This document shows positions 1,475 through 9,475 of a stretch of 9,658 nt of DNA, piece after piece. Positions within the stretch are counted from its first letter, which is position 1. The number at the start of each line of letters is the position of its first letter. The notes beneath the pieces are model-generated. The model worked only from the letters and a program-made list of their open reading frames with translations. It was not told where the DNA came from and did no database searches. The position numbers were made by a program, and so were the translations under genes. Source of the DNA: a virus (Duplodnaviria; Heunggongvirae; Uroviricota; Caudoviricetes); the IMG/VR virus record IMGVR_UViG_2695420589_000013; one strand, 5' to 3'.

Positions 1475-2005
1475 TTAGGCGCGACGGCCTTTTTGTGCAG
1501 CTAACCACCGCGCAACCGTACGATCCATTGATTCTTTTTTATCTTTCATCTCCTGAAGCATGTGTTCTTGATCTTCTTTCGGAAAAGCTCTGAACGTATG
1601 GATTAAATCTCGTTCCATCGGCTCTACGGCAAACGGTAGTTCATCCTCTGTTTGTTCTGTGTCTGCTGGTAATGCGACTATGTTATCTTGCTGTGGTTCT
1701 CGACAATACATCCTTGCAATTTGCAGCAAATCTACCATGTCTGGCCTGATTGACTCAGGGGGAACTTTCAGTAAGCCAGCAAACTTTAGAACAGCCTCAA
1801 GGTTTAGTGGGGTTTGACCATTTAGGTAGTGACTTACCGCCCCTTGTGTTGAAAACCCCATAATTTCCGCCGCACGTTCCTGAGTCAATCCCAACTGAGA
1901 TTTCTTTGCCATCCAGATTTCTTTCAGTCTTCTGGCGGCGTTGAGGTCGGTGTCTGACAATGATTTTCTTTTCATACATCCAATTCTAATAAGATTGCTA
2001 ATCAC
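1475..2005 (-). CDS. paaR: HTH (XRE/cI-type) transcriptional regulator, 176 aa (166 aa if it starts at ATG 1975). Candidate PaaR-like regulator of the toxin-antitoxin operon and/or RacR-like prophage repressor. No S24 peptidase domain
   Basis: N-terminal helix-turn-helix signature (LTQERAAEIMGFSTQGAVSHYLNGQ). Transcribed divergently from the Cro-like gene and followed 19 nt later by the antitoxin gene on the same strand. The C-terminus is acidic and helical with no Ser/Lys autoprotease motif. Confidence 0.75.
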   Translation of the reverse strand: MISNLIRIGCMKRKSLSDTDLNAARRLKEIWMAKKSQLGLTQERAAEIMGFSTQGAVSHYLNGQTPLNLEAVLKFAGLLKVPPESIRPDMVDLLQIARMYCREPQQDNIVALPADTEQTEDELPFAVEPMERDLIHTFRAFPKEDQEHMLQEMKDKKESMDRTVARWLAAQKGRRA

Positions 2006-2843: not shown

Positions 2844-3920
2844 ATGGCTAACGCCTGGCTCAGATTATGGCATGACATGCCAAATGACCCTAAGTGGCGA
2901 ACAATTGCCAGGGTGTCAGGGCAGCCAATTGCAACAGTGATGGCAGTGTATATCCACCTCCTGGTGAGCGCGTCACGAAATGTCACGCGAGGTCACATTG
3001 ATGTCACGACAGAAGATTTGGCAAGTGCGCTCGACGTGACAGAAGAGGTAATTGATTCAATTTTGCAGACGATGCAGGGGCGGGTACNNNNNNNNNNNNN
3101 NNNNNNNNTACTTGATGGTGATTTAATCACTGGATGGGAAAAACGCCAGGTGCTTAAAGAGGACAACGGCAATATTTCGCAAACCGCAAAATCTCCTGCA
3201 GAGCGCAAGAGGGCGCAGCGAGAGAGGGAAAGAAAGCGGGAACAAAATGGCGATTGTCACGGCGCGTCACGAAATGTCACGCACATGTCACGACGAGTCA
3301 CGACAGATACAGATAAAGATACAGATAAAGAAGATCAAAACACTATGGTCCATGGCGTAAAAAACGCCACGAACCAGGCAGGGGATGTTCAGACCGTCAA
3401 TCCTGGTCAGCCAGCAGGCTCGACACCGGAAGCCGATTCAGCGTATGCGCTGAAAGCCGATTCGGGCGCTGTGCAGCAGGTGATGACCGCAAGGCCGGAG
3501 CAATCACTCCAACTGCAGCAGCCTGAAGCCGATTCCGCCATTCAGCGGGAAGCCGATCGGGTAGCCCCGGAAAACACCGGGCAGCCTGTGGGACGAGTGG
3601 ATTATCCGGATGTGTTCGAACAGGTCTGGCGGGAATACCCGTTGCGTGCCGGGGCAAACCCGAAGAAATCCGCATTCAGTGCCTGGAAGGCCAGATTGCG
3701 CGAGGGGGTGCCACCAGAGACCATGCTGGATGGTGTGAGGCGTTACGCGAGATACCTGGCGGCGACCGGGAAAGCGGGAACGGAATTTGTTCAGCGAGNN
3801 NNNNNNNNNNNNNNNNNNNNNNNNNNNNNNNNNNNNNNNNNNNNNNNNNNNNNNNNNNNNNNNNNNNNNNNNNTTTTGGGCCGGACCGGAATTTTGAAAA
3901 CCCCTGGTTGCTCCCGGTAA
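2844..3920 (+). CDS. Phage replication initiator (YdaU/DUF1376-like, lambda O analogue). Boundaries uncertain because the ORF crosses two N-masked runs; the true stop may lie inside 3799-3873
   Basis: AAGAGG ribosome-binding site before ATG 2844. The N-terminus (MANAWLRLWHDMPNDPKWRTIARVSGQPIATVMAVYIHLL) is typical of DUF1376 replication proteins. Contains internal iteron clusters. Immediately precedes the DnaC-like loader gene. Confidence 0.55.
   Translation: MANAWLRLWHDMPNDPKWRTIARVSGQPIATVMAVYIHLLVSASRNVTRGHIDVTTEDLASALDVTEEVIDSILQTMQGRVXXXXXXXXLDGDLITGWEKRQVLKEDNGNISQTAKSPAERKRAQRERERKREQNGDCHGASRNVTHMSRRVTTDTDKDTDKEDQNTMVHGVKNATNQAGDVQTVNPGQPAGSTPEADSAYALKADSGAVQQVMTARPEQSLQLQQPEADSAIQREADRVAPENTGQPVGRVDYPDVFEQVWREYPLRAGANPKKSAFSAWKARLREGVPPETMLDGVRRYARYLAATGKAGTEFVQRXXXXXXXXXXXXXXXXXXXXXXXXXXLGRTGILKTPGCSR
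2968..3040. repeat. Iteron cluster 1 inside the initiator gene: GTCACG/GTCACA at 2972, 2982, 2992 and 3003 (10-11 bp spacing), plus an inverted copy CGTGAC at 3035-3040
   Basis: Counted directly. The 21-mer gcgcgtcacgaaatgtcacgc (2968-2988) is repeated exactly at 3262-3282. Confidence 0.55.
3088..3108. other. Run of 21 N (masked or unresolved sequence) inside the initiator gene
   Basis: Literal n characters. Length is a multiple of 3 and the reading frame is preserved across it. Confidence 0.99.
3256..3330. repeat. Iteron cluster 2 (putative replication origin): five GTCACG copies at 3256, 3266, 3276, 3287 and 3297 (helical-turn spacing), followed by a perfect tandem 12-bp duplication ATACAGATAAAG x2 (3307-3330)
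   Basis: Counted directly. The arrangement of iterons followed by a more AT-rich segment inside the initiator gene parallels lambda ori within gene O. Confidence 0.55.
3799..3873. other. Run of 75 N (masked or unresolved sequence) at the 3' end of the initiator gene
   Basis: Literal n characters. Length is a multiple of 3. The C-terminus of the initiator and any stop codon are hidden here. Confidence 0.99.
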
Positions 3921-4003
3921 GCGGCACGAACAACCAGCGTTGTGTGAATCATATTTCTGAACCGGATACCGAAATTCCGCCGGGATTCAGGGGGTGATGT
4001 GGC

Positions 4004-4750
4004 ATGAAAAACATTGCGGCAGCCGGGGTTCTTGAACGTATTCACAGACTTGCACCACAGGGGGCGGTTCCACCGTACCGGACGGTGGAGGAGTGGCGGG
4101 AATGGCAACTTGCTGAAGGACGAAAACGCAGCGAGGAGATTAACCGCCAGAATCGCCAGTTGCGGGTGGAAAAAATCCTGAATCGTTCGGGCATCCAGCC
4201 TCTGCACAGCAAATGCTCGTTTGCGAATTATCAGGTGCAGAACGACGGGCAAAAATACGCGCTGAGCCAGGCCAAATCCATAGCTGACGAACTGATGACC
4301 GGGTGCACGAATTTTGTGTTCAGCGGTAAAACCGGCACCGGGAAAAATCACCTTGCAGCGGCGATGGGTAACCGGCTGATGGCGAAGGGGCGCAGCGTGA
4401 TTATCGTCACCGAGTCTGATGTCATGAGCGTGTTGCATGACAGCTACGACAACGGCAAATCCGGTGAAAAATTTTTACAGGAGCTTTGCGGGGTTGATTT
4501 GCTGGTCCTGGATGAAATAGGCATTCAGCGGGAGACGAAAAACGAGCAGGTGGTATTGCACCAGATAATTGATCGCCGGACAGCATCACTGTGCAGTGTC
4601 GGGATGTTAACAAACCTGAATCATGCCGCAATGAGCACGCTTCTTGGTGAGAGGATTATGGACCGCATGACCATGAACGGTTGTCGGTGGGTGACGTTTA
4701 ACTGGGATAGCTGGCGTTCAAATGTCAGCTTTCCGGGAGTTGTGAAGTAA
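4004..4750 (+). CDS. DnaC-like helicase loader / replication protein (IstB-like AAA+ ATPase, 248 aa; lambda P analogue, YdaV-like)
   Basis: Walker A motif (FSGKTGTGKNHLAAA) and Walker B motif (DLLVLDEIG). Size and position after the initiator gene match DnaC-type loaders of lambdoid and Rac prophages. Confidence 0.85.
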   Translation: MKNIAAAGVLERIHRLAPQGAVPPYRTVEEWREWQLAEGRKRSEEINRQNRQLRVEKILNRSGIQPLHSKCSFANYQVQNDGQKYALSQAKSIADELMTGCTNFVFSGKTGTGKNHLAAAMGNRLMAKGRSVIIVTESDVMSVLHDSYDNGKSGEKFLQELCGVDLLVLDEIGIQRETKNEQVVLHQIIDRRTASLCSVGMLTNLNHAAMSTLLGERIMDRMTMNGCRWVTFNWDSWRSNVSFPGVVK

Positions 4751-6563: not shown

Positions 6564-8396
6564 ATGGCCCGCATGTTTGATACATTAGGATTTTACATTA
6601 TGAATGTGCAACATTTTGATTTTTTTACAGATAATGAGTTTTCTAATCTGGAAAGATATCAAACTTGTAAAGCCATGGCCAAAGGTTATGCGGGCAATTA
6701 CAAAACCGGGCAGTCAAGGTTGATGCATGCCCGCTCATACTGCTTCAGCATCGTAGCTGCATATTGGGATACCCTTGCAAAAAAGCAAAAAAGCAGCATT
6801 AAAATGAGGGCAGTACCGCACACTGTTTACATAGAAGACATTCCATGTGATGCACGCGAGCTCGCTGAACGAACAGGTGAGCTTATTGCTCAATTTCCGG
6901 CGGAGGACGCTGGATATCTGATTGGGTCAATTTATACGGTAATGCTGCCATCCGCTTACCGTTCGGAATTGGGGGCTTACTATACCCCCCCACCTTTGGT
7001 AGCGCGTCTCTTGGACCTGGCTGAAAAGTCTGGTGTTGATTTTTCTCATGCATCGGTTATTGATCCTGCGTGTGGTGGCGGTGCATTTTTGGCACCAGTA
7101 GCCATTCGAATGTTAAAAAAAGACAAGGGGTCTTCCCCTGAATGGATGTTGAGGAGAATCAGTCGTCGTTTAAAGGGGATAGAAATCGATCCATTTGCGG
7201 CTTGGATGAGTTTGGTATTGCTCGAATCTGTACTAATGCCACTATGTGTAAAGGTAAAACGTAGATTGCCTGAAGATACAATTATTGTTGCTGATGCGCT
7301 TCAGCAAGATAAATTTTCTGGTTATGATCTTGTGGTAGGGAATCCGCCTTACGGACGTGTCACTCTCGATATTAAAACGAGAGAAAAATATTCTCGTTCG
7401 TTATTTGGTCATGCAAATCTATATGGATTGTTCACCGACTTAGCTGTTCGCATGGTTAAAGAGAAAACAGGAGTTATTGCATTTCTTACGCCAACTTCTT
7501 TTCTTGGTGGGCAGTATTTCACCGCGCTGCGAACCCTTTTGACCGAAAAAACTACTCCGTATGCCCTTGATTTCGTCACTGACAGGGATGGGGTCTTTGA
7601 CGATGTTCTCCAGGAAACAATGTTGACAGCATTCAAGGCGGGAGAACATAAAGTTCGGGCCCAGGTATCCTCACTTGTCCCTAAGGGGTTGAACAAAGCA
7701 AAAATTGAGAAAATAGGTAATGTTGATATAGAAAAAGGTGGAGCAACGTGGCTTTTGCCACGCGTTAAAGATGATGCCTGTTTTCTTAATGTATTAAAAC
7801 AGATGTCTACGCGTTTAGCTGATCTGGGATACTCAGTCTCTACAGGTCAGTTAGTCTGGAATCGATTTAAGTCGCAGTTGCGTACGACGAAAGGAAAAAA
7901 TAGCTACCCATTAGTCTGGGCGGAATCAATAACTTCAGCTGGTTTTCGTTTTAGTGCAGACAGAAAAAATCATGTTCCCTATATCGATATAACCCCACAA
8001 CAGGGTTTCCTTGTGACAAAATCTGAATGTGTGCTTGTTCAGCGGACAACATCGAAGGAACAGGACAGAAGGATTTTAGCGGCAATTTTACCTCAGGGAT
8101 TTATAGATGAAACTGGTGGCGTAGTAGTTGAAAACCATATTAATATTGTATATTCAAACGGATTGTTCTCTGCGGTTCGCCCTGATGTTATTGATATGCT
8201 ACTTAATTCGCATGTTGTCGATCGGGCGTTCAGGTGTATAAGCGGAAGTGTTGCTGTTTCGGCCTATGAATTGAATTCAATCCCGTTGCCTTCTCTGGAG
8301 CAGGTGATGGAGATTCAATCGTTAATTGATGCTGGCGTCCACAGACGGATTATTGAGAGAACTATCGCTGGTTTCTATGGAGTGATGATTGCATGA
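6564..8396 (+). CDS. N6-adenine DNA methyltransferase, gamma class (Eco57I/TaqI-like catalytic domain plus a C-terminal target-recognition region), 610 aa. Start codon uncertain (alternatives at 6600, 6675, 6723)
   Basis: Motif X GAYYTPPP, motif I (AdoMet binding) VIDPACGGGAFL, and motif IV NPPYG (nt about 7338-7355) occur in the gamma-class order X-I-IV. Long C-terminal half consistent with a target-recognition domain. Stop overlaps the downstream gene (ATGA at 8393-8396). Confidence 0.85.
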   Translation: MARMFDTLGFYIMNVQHFDFFTDNEFSNLERYQTCKAMAKGYAGNYKTGQSRLMHARSYCFSIVAAYWDTLAKKQKSSIKMRAVPHTVYIEDIPCDARELAERTGELIAQFPAEDAGYLIGSIYTVMLPSAYRSELGAYYTPPPLVARLLDLAEKSGVDFSHASVIDPACGGGAFLAPVAIRMLKKDKGSSPEWMLRRISRRLKGIEIDPFAAWMSLVLLESVLMPLCVKVKRRLPEDTIIVADALQQDKFSGYDLVVGNPPYGRVTLDIKTREKYSRSLFGHANLYGLFTDLAVRMVKEKTGVIAFLTPTSFLGGQYFTALRTLLTEKTTPYALDFVTDRDGVFDDVLQETMLTAFKAGEHKVRAQVSSLVPKGLNKAKIEKIGNVDIEKGGATWLLPRVKDDACFLNVLKQMSTRLADLGYSVSTGQLVWNRFKSQLRTTKGKNSYPLVWAESITSAGFRFSADRKNHVPYIDITPQQGFLVTKSECVLVQRTTSKEQDRRILAAILPQGFIDETGGVVVENHINIVYSNGLFSAVRPDVIDMLLNSHVVDRAFRCISGSVAVSAYELNSIPLPSLEQVMEIQSLIDAGVHRRIIERTIAGFYGVMIA

Positions 8397-9475
8397 ATCT
8401 GCCTGTTGTTCCCCCATTGAATGTTATCCGGGAAAGATTACAATTAATTTTCCCTGAAGGGACTGAGAATCGTGGATATTTAATTCGGGAAATAGCTGCA
8501 AAAACAATTTTTGTCATGTTTTATGCTGGTGCGGTTGAGGGGCTGGGGCGATGGATAAGGCCCAGCCAGGTTGTAAGTATGGGAGATTCGCAGGCTGCTC
8601 TTACTGATGATGCGTCCAGAGAAAGCTGGGTAAAGATGACTTTCTCTAAACAAAAGATAAGGCCTGCTGATGCATGGTATGCGGAAAATACGCGTGAGCC
8701 AATACGTGATGAAACTATAAAAAATGGCCTAATACCTTGCAATGCAATTGTTGAGCGTAAAGGTATACCCACCACATCCTCTCGTCCTCGTTACAGTTTG
8801 AATCGCTCTTTTGCAGCACTCTTTGATGCCGGGCTTGAAGGAGATTCGCTGCTGAGTGCAATAAGTTCCTGGCAAGAAAATCATTTGAACAAAGCCGCTC
8901 TTGCTAGGTTGCGTTTATTGAAATCAGGGGCAGTGATTGCTGCTGATGCCGTAGTCGTCACTTTCCCAAATGGAGAGAAGAGAACTTTAGCTCCGGGCCC
9001 GTCAAGTACAATAGCTAAGGCCGTCATCGAAGTTTTTGCTCCTAATTTTCTTAAGAATCCAACTGTGCTCTGGTTGTCTGAATCCGGGAATAAAGTTGTT
9101 GCTCAGGATGATGTATTGGCAAAAGCATTGGGGCTGAATATTGATGCCTCAAAAGCACTTCCAGATATTATTTTGATTGATTTGGGAGAGGACCGAACGG
9201 GTTCGGACATGCTTGTAGTTTTCACTGAAGTAGTTGCGACAGATGGGCCTATAAACAGGGAACGAAAAGTTACTCTCACTCATTTGGCTATTGACGCTGG
9301 GTTCAGCGAGAAAAATCTTGCATTCCTTACGGCATTTATGGACAGAAGTGCTCTGCCTTTTAAAAAGGCAATACCAGAATTGGCGTGGGGATCTTATGCA
9401 TGGTTTGCTTCTGAACCGGAGCACTTAATTGATCTTCGGGATGGTTATCCGGTAAAGATCAGCCAGAGAAAATGA
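8393..9475 (+). CDS. Methyltransferase-coupled partner protein, 360 aa. Putative restriction endonuclease, possibly BsuBI/PstI-like. Function not provable from sequence alone
   Basis: Translationally coupled to the methyltransferase by a 4-bp overlap. Same low-GC composition. Size is typical of Type II restriction subunits. No canonical PD-(D/E)xK, HNH or GIY-YIG motif identified by eye. The BsuBI/PstI family guess is from recalled gene-neighbourhood patterns only. Confidence 0.55.
   Translation: MNLPVVPPLNVIRERLQLIFPEGTENRGYLIREIAAKTIFVMFYAGAVEGLGRWIRPSQVVSMGDSQAALTDDASRESWVKMTFSKQKIRPADAWYAENTREPIRDETIKNGLIPCNAIVERKGIPTTSSRPRYSLNRSFAALFDAGLEGDSLLSAISSWQENHLNKAALARLRLLKSGAVIAADAVVVTFPNGEKRTLAPGPSSTIAKAVIEVFAPNFLKNPTVLWLSESGNKVVAQDDVLAKALGLNIDASKALPDIILIDLGEDRTGSDMLVVFTEVVATDGPINRERKVTLTHLAIDAGFSEKNLAFLTAFMDRSALPFKKAIPELAWGSYAWFASEPEHLIDLRDGYPVKISQRK

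Follow-up and report, generated by a model that had tools for sequence, protein, structure and literature searches.

Introduction

In several described phages, the origin of replication is located inside the gene of its own initiator, and it is composed of repeated protein binding sites (iterons). In plasmids of the RepA_N type from Gram-positive bacteria, e.g., pSK41 and pAD1, the origin repeats occupy the middle of the rep gene, which codes for a linker, and the origins of Staphylococcus aureus pathogenicity islands (SaPI) feature two sets of hexamer-type iterons with an AT-rich region between the sets, outside the rep gene. The iterons of phage lambda comprise about 19 bp with internal dyad symmetry, stand about two helical turns apart and are bound by O dimers. 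Lambda ori, consisting of these iterons and an AT-rich tract, is found in the middle of gene O (PMC7466680). Likewise, gp38 of phage SPP1 binds direct repeats beside an AT-rich unwinding element at the validated oriL inside gene 38 (PMC6316719), and the replisome organizers of lactococcal phages bind direct repeats in their own genes, which serve as ori (PMC8965321). In addition, the Rac prophage of Escherichia coli K-12 possesses an active origin, oriJ (PMC3945230). The present study deals with a stretch of 9,658 nucleotides (nt) from a virus of the Caudoviricetes (IMG/VR record IMGVR_UViG_2695420589_000013), hereafter called the window, and with two iteron clusters and an adjoining AT-rich array within its initiator gene (2844-3997, plus strand). 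These elements together are probably the replication origin of a lambdoid prophage, situated inside the gene of its own initiator. The open reading frame (ORF) of the initiator contains short direct repeats above chance expectation, and they adjoin a tract of low duplex stability.

Phased Iteron Clusters in the Initiator Gene

The hexamer GTCACG has nine copies in the window, all of them confined to two clusters (2972-3040 and 3256-3302); 3.1 copies are expected in shuffled sequences, and none of 200 shuffles reaches nine. Cluster 1 (2972-3008, plus strand) consists of four direct cores, three of them being GTCACG (2972, 2982, and 3003) and the fourth a GTCACA variant at 2992. It is followed by one inverted copy on the minus strand (3035-3040), which reads CGTGAC on the top strand and falls into the codons D-V-T. 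Cluster 2 (3256-3302, plus strand) comprises five direct GTCACG cores (3256, 3266, 3276, 3287, and 3297). The cores are spaced by 10/10/11 nt in cluster 1 and by 10/10/11/10 nt in cluster 2, i.e., one copy per helical turn. Moreover, the 21-mer GCGCGTCACGAAATGTCACGC is present exactly at both 2968-2988 and 3262-3282 (chance expectation 0). The duplication is slightly shorter in other strains, for instance in the relative L001, which features GAG for GCG. No match was obtained in an Rfam scan of the window.

A preceding sequence-only reading of the window had reported both clusters together with the duplicated 21-mer, a tandem 12-mer and repeated peptide segments. Both clusters are real and the five copies of cluster 2 were confirmed, but the supposed fourth GTCACG of cluster 1 proved to be the GTCACA variant. 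The remaining observations hold as they were made: the 21-mer is exact, the 12-mer is recovered at 3305-3331 with a 100% match and 2.2 copies by Tandem Repeats Finder (TRF), and the peptides SRNVT... and DTDKDTDK are present in the window protein.

The GTCACG cores fall in all three codon phases, so that one DNA motif gives differing peptides. A further peptide reading is provided by an example with the core CGAACG, TCGAACGCAACCGAACGCGGCCGAACGCA, which is translated as S-N-A-T-E-R-G-R-T. Cluster 1 overprints codons 43-55, which according to the predicted fold correspond to the end of a helix (residues 29-45) and the subsequent loop of a winged-helix domain. Cluster 2 is predicted to lie in the region coding for a disordered linker, and both its position and its phasing are kept in homologues.

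Selection on the DNA in Homologous Loci

An alignment-driven scan with one genome per species delivered 59 homologous loci, each encoding the N-terminal domain of the initiator. They belong to Gamma-, Beta-, and Alphaproteobacteria as well as to some contigs of metagenome-assembled genomes assigned to other phyla, and the GC content of the loci ranges from 33 to 69%. The two-cluster layout persists among these loci; repeated hexamers in homologous initiator genes were one of the points on which the sequence-only reading had made its proposal of an origin depend, and they are conserved. Phased repeats were detected in both regions in 39 of 55 loci, and in 35 of these 39 the phased 5-mer is identical in the two regions. 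The pentamer GTCAC itself appears in 24 of the 59 loci at gene positions of about 128, 138, 148, and 159, inverted at 192 and in a second run at about 386-417. These 24 loci of the GTCAC class span hosts from Enterobacteria to Betaproteobacteria and GC contents of 34-69%, with the pentamer being rare in their flanks. The inverted copy is located at gene position +192 in most of them, and Val65 is encoded by GTG in 19 of 19 cases.

The third codon base of conserved residues inside and outside the hexamers was compared in a codon alignment of 22 genes of the GTCAC class with third-position GC contents of 0.33-0.82. The codons inside the hexamers are practically invariant (Ser44 TCA in 21/22 genes; Val47 GTC, Thr48 ACG, Gly50 GGT, and Val54 GTC in 22/22 each), whereas equally conserved residues outside employ three to six codons each. 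Accordingly, the number of effective codons at four- and sixfold degenerate sites amounts to 1.1 in the iterons vs. 3.7 elsewhere (Mann-Whitney p = 1.4e-5). Judged by this codon usage, it is the DNA, and not the protein, on which selection acts to preserve the iteron repeats.

The same data bear on the explanation that the repeats serve the protein, as SRNVT/VTT and DTDK segments or as a low-complexity linker, with the repetition of the DNA being a by-product. It is true that the most highly conserved peptides of the family include A-S-x-N-V-T-R-G-H and D-V-T, that the D-K/D-T repeats might form a flexible charged linker and that the length of the array encoding them varies among strains. Nevertheless, the core is read in three frames with different peptides as the result, the spacing of 10-11 nt is no multiple of three, the synonymous sites within the cores are frozen, and Asp and Lys in the array are encoded near-exclusively by GAT and AAA even at 55-69% GC. 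By the evidence of frame and codons this explanation appears essentially excluded, and we regard it as very improbable.

The loop beneath cluster 1 differs in length and content among relatives. Alleles of E. albertii (L005, gene nt 128-180) and E. coli O157 (P0016) feature six instead of four iterons in cluster 1, the two extra copies amounting to 21 nt or seven codons (TCHGVSL) with the frame staying intact. Larger insertions bearing iterons occur in the same loop in L029, L045, and L024/L026/L028, and some members possess no iterons there, with the sequence A-S-x-x-E-E-R-G in their place. This pattern suggests that the iterons are overprinted on a tolerant, expandable loop.

The AT-Rich Array Beside Cluster 2

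Cluster 2 is directly followed by an AT-rich array of GATA-type hexamers with an AT-rich tail (3303-3346), made up of ACAGAT/AGATAA units and including ATACAGATAAAG twice in tandem. TRF assigns a 12-mer period to 3303-3331, with an underlying period of 6 nt. The segment 3307-3346 is the least stable 40-mer between 2060 and 4750 (-43.2 kcal/mol vs. a window mean of -54.3 with a standard deviation of 4.0); its top strand contains 72% purines and GC drops to 0.37. The array is a candidate DNA unwinding element and would be the site of melting.

A (GATAAA/GATACA)n array of this type, ...CAGATAAAGATACAGATAAAGA..., abuts cluster 2 in nearly all members of the family, independent of iteron class and host GC content. 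Within it, Asp is encoded by GAT rather than its synonym in a ratio of 101:2 and Lys by AAA in a ratio of 73:3, compared with ratios near 1:1 over the remainder of these genes. At loci with at least 55% GC, the ratios are 52:1 for GAT and 31:1 for AAA in the array vs. 110:158 and 75:136 in the remainder of the gene. The length of the array is polymorphic in E. coli, where alleles differ in steps of 6 or 12 nt: a query of 301 nt spans 295, 301, 307, 319, 331, or 343 nt across E. coli genomes. The allele of the window is one hexamer shorter than the commonest one.

The array is also found beyond this family. The 20-mer GATAAAGATACAGATAAAGA occurs in at least 120 viral contigs, 101 of them from this initiator family, and also in the linker of proteins with Phage_rep_org_N (L101, L142) and DUF6291 (L130, L174), where it stands directly after each gene's own short direct repeats. 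In ydaU of K-12, a DUF1376 gene (L003 5590-5620), AAAGATACAGATAAAGAT follows repeats of the GATGTTCAA type. Among relatives of L101, the strict array is contained in 14 of 56 distinct linkers vs. two occurrences in 367 kb outside the gene. It is conceivable, and to us rather doubtful, that the GATAAA/GATACA array is not a generic AT-rich unwinding tract but a specific ancient origin signal in at least four initiator families with unrelated N-terminal domains (this one, Phage_rep_org_N, DUF6291, and DUF1376/YdaU) from phages of very different hosts, which is placed after each family's own iterons, encodes D-K/D-T repeats and is possibly recognized as single-stranded DNA by the initiator or the loading machinery; this proposal further includes, for the present family, a second iteron set overprinted in three frames where the DNA-binding fold has an expandable surface loop.

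The AT-rich tract is immediately followed by an inverted repeat of 13 nt with a loop of 5 nt (3346-3376), which on the minus strand resembles the hairpin of an intrinsic terminator followed by a T-rich run (fold z = -2.3). Such a hairpin was found after the array in only about 8 of 31 array-bearing homologues (e.g., L013, L020, L032, L038), and a conserved lambda-like palindrome after the AT-rich tract was on this ground dropped as a defining part.

Clusters of binding sites within a gene could also act as roadblocks, and the repeats might in this sense be a cis-regulatory operator, bound by the initiator or another phage protein and autoregulating the operon of initiator and helicase loader, with the origin situated elsewhere. 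The position of cluster 1 early in the gene, its dispensability in some members and a weak antisense promoter-like match made of iterons (3280-3253) are compatible with such a function. However, counts of promoters and terminators around the putative origin are at chance level, with two promoter-like sites found vs. 1.9 expected. Furthermore, cluster 2 is accompanied in nearly all members by an AT-rich array under strong selection at the DNA level, which regulation would not need, and the layout equals that of SPP1 gene 38, the site of a validated oriL. We therefore consider a purely regulatory role unlikely. Regulation and origin function are mutually compatible.

Concerted Switching of the Core and the Candidate Binding Protein

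Besides GTCAC, several other iteron classes exist. The core is GTAACG in six loci (L024, L026, L032, L037, L043, and L045), CGAACG(C) in about 15 and GTGACG in L056, and in each of these three classes it is altered in both clusters together. L046 and L057 feature an ACTACG core, with the downstream cluster alone being detected. The core differs between initiator clades, sometimes inside one host genus, and the trinucleotide ACG is common to all classes.

This shared trinucleotide would fit the idea that a conserved host factor instead of the phage initiator binds the hexamers. Yet the breadth of hosts and GC contents covered by the GTCAC class, the change of the core between initiator clades even within a genus and the restriction of the repeats in the window to the initiator gene speak against it, and we rate a host factor as improbable.

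The association of the repeats with particular genes was assessed by tblastn of six proteins of the window (repressor, cro-like, YdaT-like, loader, DUF1627, and the N-domain of the initiator). The N-domain was retained in all 24 loci of the GTCAC class, and each of the other five proteins was present in at most two of the 24. Moreover, among close relatives in E. coli this initiator gene is accompanied by varying immunity regions. Because the N-domain alone of the six proteins travels with the repeats and the immunity regions are exchanged, the initiator is the most economical candidate for the binding protein and would itself bind the iterons.

Paired clusters of some five repeats each, spaced by one helical turn, could likewise be imagined in a centromere-like partition site or in a packaging site; parC of plasmid R1, for example, has 11-bp repeats. 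Nevertheless, Pfam scans of the ORFs over most of the window found no gene of the ParA/ParM or terminase type, the element is an integrated lambdoid prophage, and the repeats always travel with the initiator domain and never with other neighbors, which makes a partition or packaging site hardly probable.

The Initiator Protein

The gene is listed in RefSeq and phage records under the names 'phage replisome organizer,' 'DNA replication protein O,' and 'primosomal protein I.' The initiator is matched by PHROG 3729 'replication initiation protein' at an E-value of 9e-255 and by PHROG 'replisome organizer' families at 2e-9 and 9e-8. Intact homologues comprise 356-372 amino acids (aa) and end in ...IPPGFRG.

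An AlphaFold2 model based on 44 homologues is confident for residues of about 12-95, with predicted helices at 16-25, 29-45, 56-63, and 67-77 and a subsequent beta-hairpin, followed by a basic helix (110-128) and a remainder predicted to be disordered. The predicted N-domain superposes on solved winged-helix domains; it corresponds to residues 12-95 of intact homologues and would be encoded by 2877-3152 (plus strand), a span that includes 24 extra bases at the first run of N. Reading of the core by the canonical recognition helix 67-77 was considered and rejected, as this helix is acidic and hydrophobic in the model and shows no pattern by class. A candidate DNA-reading element is instead the basic helix (AKSPAERKRAQRERERKREQ), encoded at 3186-3251 (plus strand). 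Its sequence takes the form SAERAKxWRE with CGAACG, SxxRVKxYRE with GTAACG and SAAERKRxQRERE with GTCACG iterons, and among L004-L059 residues in the stretch of about 100-125 follow the class: CGAACG goes together with W, GTAACG and GTGACG with Y or F, and GTCACG with Q. The pattern is broken by L028, which combines a Y-type helix with CGTCACG iterons. As the class pattern is confounded by phylogeny, the basic helix may serve as a lead only.

At the other end of the protein, the tail RCVNHISEPDTEIPPGFRG (3938-3994, plus strand) is a candidate contact for the DnaC-like loader. The tail (...EPDTEIPPGFRG) recurs in YdaU of the K-12 Rac prophage (L003 5921-5977), which is otherwise unrelated, and the last 24 aa weakly match the C-terminus of DnaT (18 bits vs. 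a cutoff of 201). Among 13 homologues, the tail is present in L026, where a DnaC/IstB-like loader gene comes next, and in a weaker PAGF form in L045. L020 has a DnaC/IstB-like loader and no tail, and the tail is also missing from members whose partner gene is of another kind (DUF6475, weakly G39P-like, or unknown). The tail would contact the loader and may be a portable loader-docking motif.

Regarding family assignment, a Pfam scan of the window protein gave no family at E <= 0.01 except for a spurious TFIIF match. The DUF1376/YdaU label given in the sequence-only reading has to be withdrawn: PF07120 is missing in the window protein, while K-12 YdaU matches it at E 2.7e-26, and the BLASTP similarity between the two is limited to the last 19 aa and the linker. 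Homology to lambda O (Phage_rep_O) was discarded as there is no Pfam match to the window protein. The same is true for an identity with DnaT (PF17948/NF002770), since window-type proteins show no PF17948 match; this domain occurs as an alternative C-terminal domain in 12 of 44 N-domain homologues. Neither the window protein nor the 44 homologues match PF09681 (Phage_rep_org_N). An hhalign comparison with the PF09681 member L101 is collinear across 136 columns at E 0.003 with a probability of just 10%, and the comparison with SPP1 G38P is not significant (E 0.61). A Foldseek search retrieved N-terminal domains of RepA (4pta, 4pql) among weak, non-significant matches (E about 1).

Several Pseudomonas aeruginosa phages have the matching stretch annotated as a pair of hypothetical proteins. 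One protein, P0034 (160 aa, from P. aeruginosa according to its source), stops soon after the D-K region. Consequently, N-domain and origin may form a gene separate from the C-terminal part in some lineages.

The Locus and Its Neighborhood

Two runs of N interrupt the initiator gene. The first (3088-3108) comprises 21 N at a place where homologues have no sequence; close homologues are continuous across it, and the window contains 24 extra bases, namely the 21 N and a duplicated TAC. The sequence-only reading had suggested looking for further repeats under this mask, which the run, to judge by the homologues, probably does not hide. The second run (3799-3873) comprises 75 N where homologues have 10 nt. 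It breaks the frame of the initiator only in the window as given, where the ORF seems to stop at 3920 instead of 3997. Compared with the homologues, both run lengths are evidently unfaithful to the real sequence.

The initiator gene is preceded by a divergent repressor-type gene with HTH_3 domain (1475-2005, minus strand), a cro-like gene (2060-2350), and a gene of the YdaT family (2347-2772), and followed by a gene for a DnaC-like AAA+ helicase loader (4004-4750, plus strand; IstB_IS21 E 3e-19, NCBIfam PRK12377 E 2e-150, DnaC E 2e-88), whose product shares 80% sequence identity with YdaV of the K-12 Rac prophage. The order cI/cro/YdaT - initiator - DnaC-like loader is that of a lambdoid early region.

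The distribution of the initiator gene is wide. It was matched in 2519 of 5426 complete E. coli genomes (about 46%), and 1645 complete E. coli genomes contain DNA at least 80% identical over most of the gene. Phages carrying this gene include Tritos and Evi, and relatives exist in phages of Pseudomonas, Aeromonas, and Ralstonia as well as in cyanophages.

Further genes of the window lie outside the replication module. Genes for a ParE toxin (971-1261, PF05016), a PaaA2 antitoxin (1261-1455, PF21217), and the HTH_3 regulator (1475-2005) are grouped on the minus strand, with the regulator occupying the place expected for the prophage repressor, divergent from the cro-like gene. This toxin-antitoxin-regulator group (971-2005) resembles the paaR2-paaA2-parE2 module of the cryptic prophages of O157:H7. 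Downstream of the replication module, AT-rich cargo (6564-9475) encodes an N6-adenine methyltransferase (6564-8396, Eco57I/N6_Mtase), overlapped by a restriction endonuclease of the BsuBI/PstI type (8393-9475), which together represent a prophage-borne type II restriction-modification system. The relative L001 carries genes such as DUF4406 and Ea22-like at that place, after the DUF977 gene.

A Putative Intragenic Origin and Its Significance

From the comparative evidence, we infer that the initiator binds the iterons and that the element acts as an origin. Derepression of the prophage would lead to rightward early transcription and the synthesis of the initiator and the DnaC-like loader. Initiator protomers would then bind side by side on the GTCACG cores, one per helical turn and along one face of the DNA, with the winged-helix N-domain and the basic helix as binding parts and with cluster 2 (five sites) and cluster 1 (four sites and one inverted) as targets. 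The resulting nucleoprotein complex could destabilize the adjoining purine-rich, AT-rich GATA array (3303-3346), and the C-terminal part of the initiator would recruit the loader together with host DnaB.

The sequence-only reading had likened the arrangement to lambda O/ori. Conserved hexamers, frozen synonymous sites, the use of three codon phases, class switching, the array, and the loader all favor an origin of that sort, but the protein is not a homologue of lambda O. Several findings weigh against an origin at this place. No DnaA box was detected within one mismatch, and a rep_origin feature under the gene match is absent from all matching phage records. Cluster 1 is missing in some members (L030, L033, L044, L046, and L057) and is therefore not essential for the family. 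The distance between the clusters varies from 250 to 350 nt without conserved helical phasing. In addition, the canonical recognition helix of the model has an acidic and hydrophobic character, and the covariation of iteron class and protein clade is confounded by phylogeny.

To a specialist, an origin at this position would come as no surprise, but the comparative signatures are unusually clean. Its location defines a fragment of about 2950-3400 for prophage-derived replicons and would allow the induction-driven in situ replication of prophages of the enterohemorrhagic E. coli type to be read. The iteron class could further predict incompatibility or cross-activation between co-resident prophages. 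Besides, the family offers a clean case of dual coding in nature, in which one stretch of DNA contains both a protein sequence and a protein-binding array, and its measurable signatures, i.e., frozen synonymous sites, reading in three frames, and concerted class switching, are usable for finding hidden origins elsewhere. If the proposal of a second, overprinted iteron set holds, a portion of the target site of an origin-binding protein would be written into the part of its gene that encodes its fold. If the GATA array is indeed specific, this would point to a common step of origin melting or helicase loading among unrelated phage initiators.

Comparison With Known Systems

In the layout of the sequence, SPP1 G38P/oriL comes closer to the window than lambda does and is the best architectural match, with an iteron period of 10-11 nt and no internal dyads. 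Directly behind an NYEKWQ motif, which resembles GWEKRQ of the window protein, SPP1 gene 38 (L184 7930-8025, gene nt about 355-445) features AGAAACGACA and CGAAAAAGACA repeats with a period of 10-11 nt. After them comes (AACAATGAT)n, an AT-rich tandem repeat in the linker-coding region that encodes N-N-D-N-N-E-N-N-D-N. The order NYEKWQ - repeats - AT-rich repeat is collinear with GWEKRQ - cluster 2 - GATA array in the window. In both cases the gene of a helicase loader comes next, which is of the G39P type in SPP1 and of the DnaC/IstB type in the window. However, G38P possesses a C-terminal Phg_2220_C domain that the window protein lacks, SPP1 shows no obvious iteron cluster in the region coding for the N-domain, and a second SPP1 origin, oriR, is located elsewhere.

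Lambda differs more strongly in its sites. The window features a 6-bp core in direct orientation at one copy per turn, a DnaC-like AAA+ partner instead of lambda P and a second iteron cluster in the region coding for the DNA-binding domain. Lambda resembles the window in its pR-type early operon with the gene of a helicase-recruiting partner after the initiator gene (PMC7466680). Likewise, the number of iterons varies between relatives among lambda and Shiga toxin (Stx) phages and adds residues to the protein, just as two additional iterons correspond to seven additional residues in the present family.

Among lactococcal phages of the P335 group, the replisome organizers TP901-1 ORF13, Tuc2009 Rep2009, and r1t ORF11, the latter with the DnaC-like ORF12, lend themselves to comparison. 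TP901-1 ORF13 belongs to a different family (DnaB_2/HTH_36) and its gene features no GATA array. In relatives with PF09681, the repeat period is often 12 nt and thus in frame, in contrast to 10-11 nt in the window. The Rac genes ydaS-ydaT-ydaU-ydaV follow the same order as those of the window, and beyond the highly similar loaders the initiators share the C-terminal tail. The N-domain of Rac YdaU is a DUF1376 domain, unlike that of the window protein, and the alignment is confined to tail and linker. No sequence relation to the initiators of RepA_N plasmids or SaPI was found.

An intragenic iteron origin is of a well-known kind. For this initiator family, a literature search yielded no description of an origin. 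What is unusual is the iteron cluster overprinted in three frames on a folded DNA-binding domain and the GATA array common to unrelated initiator families.

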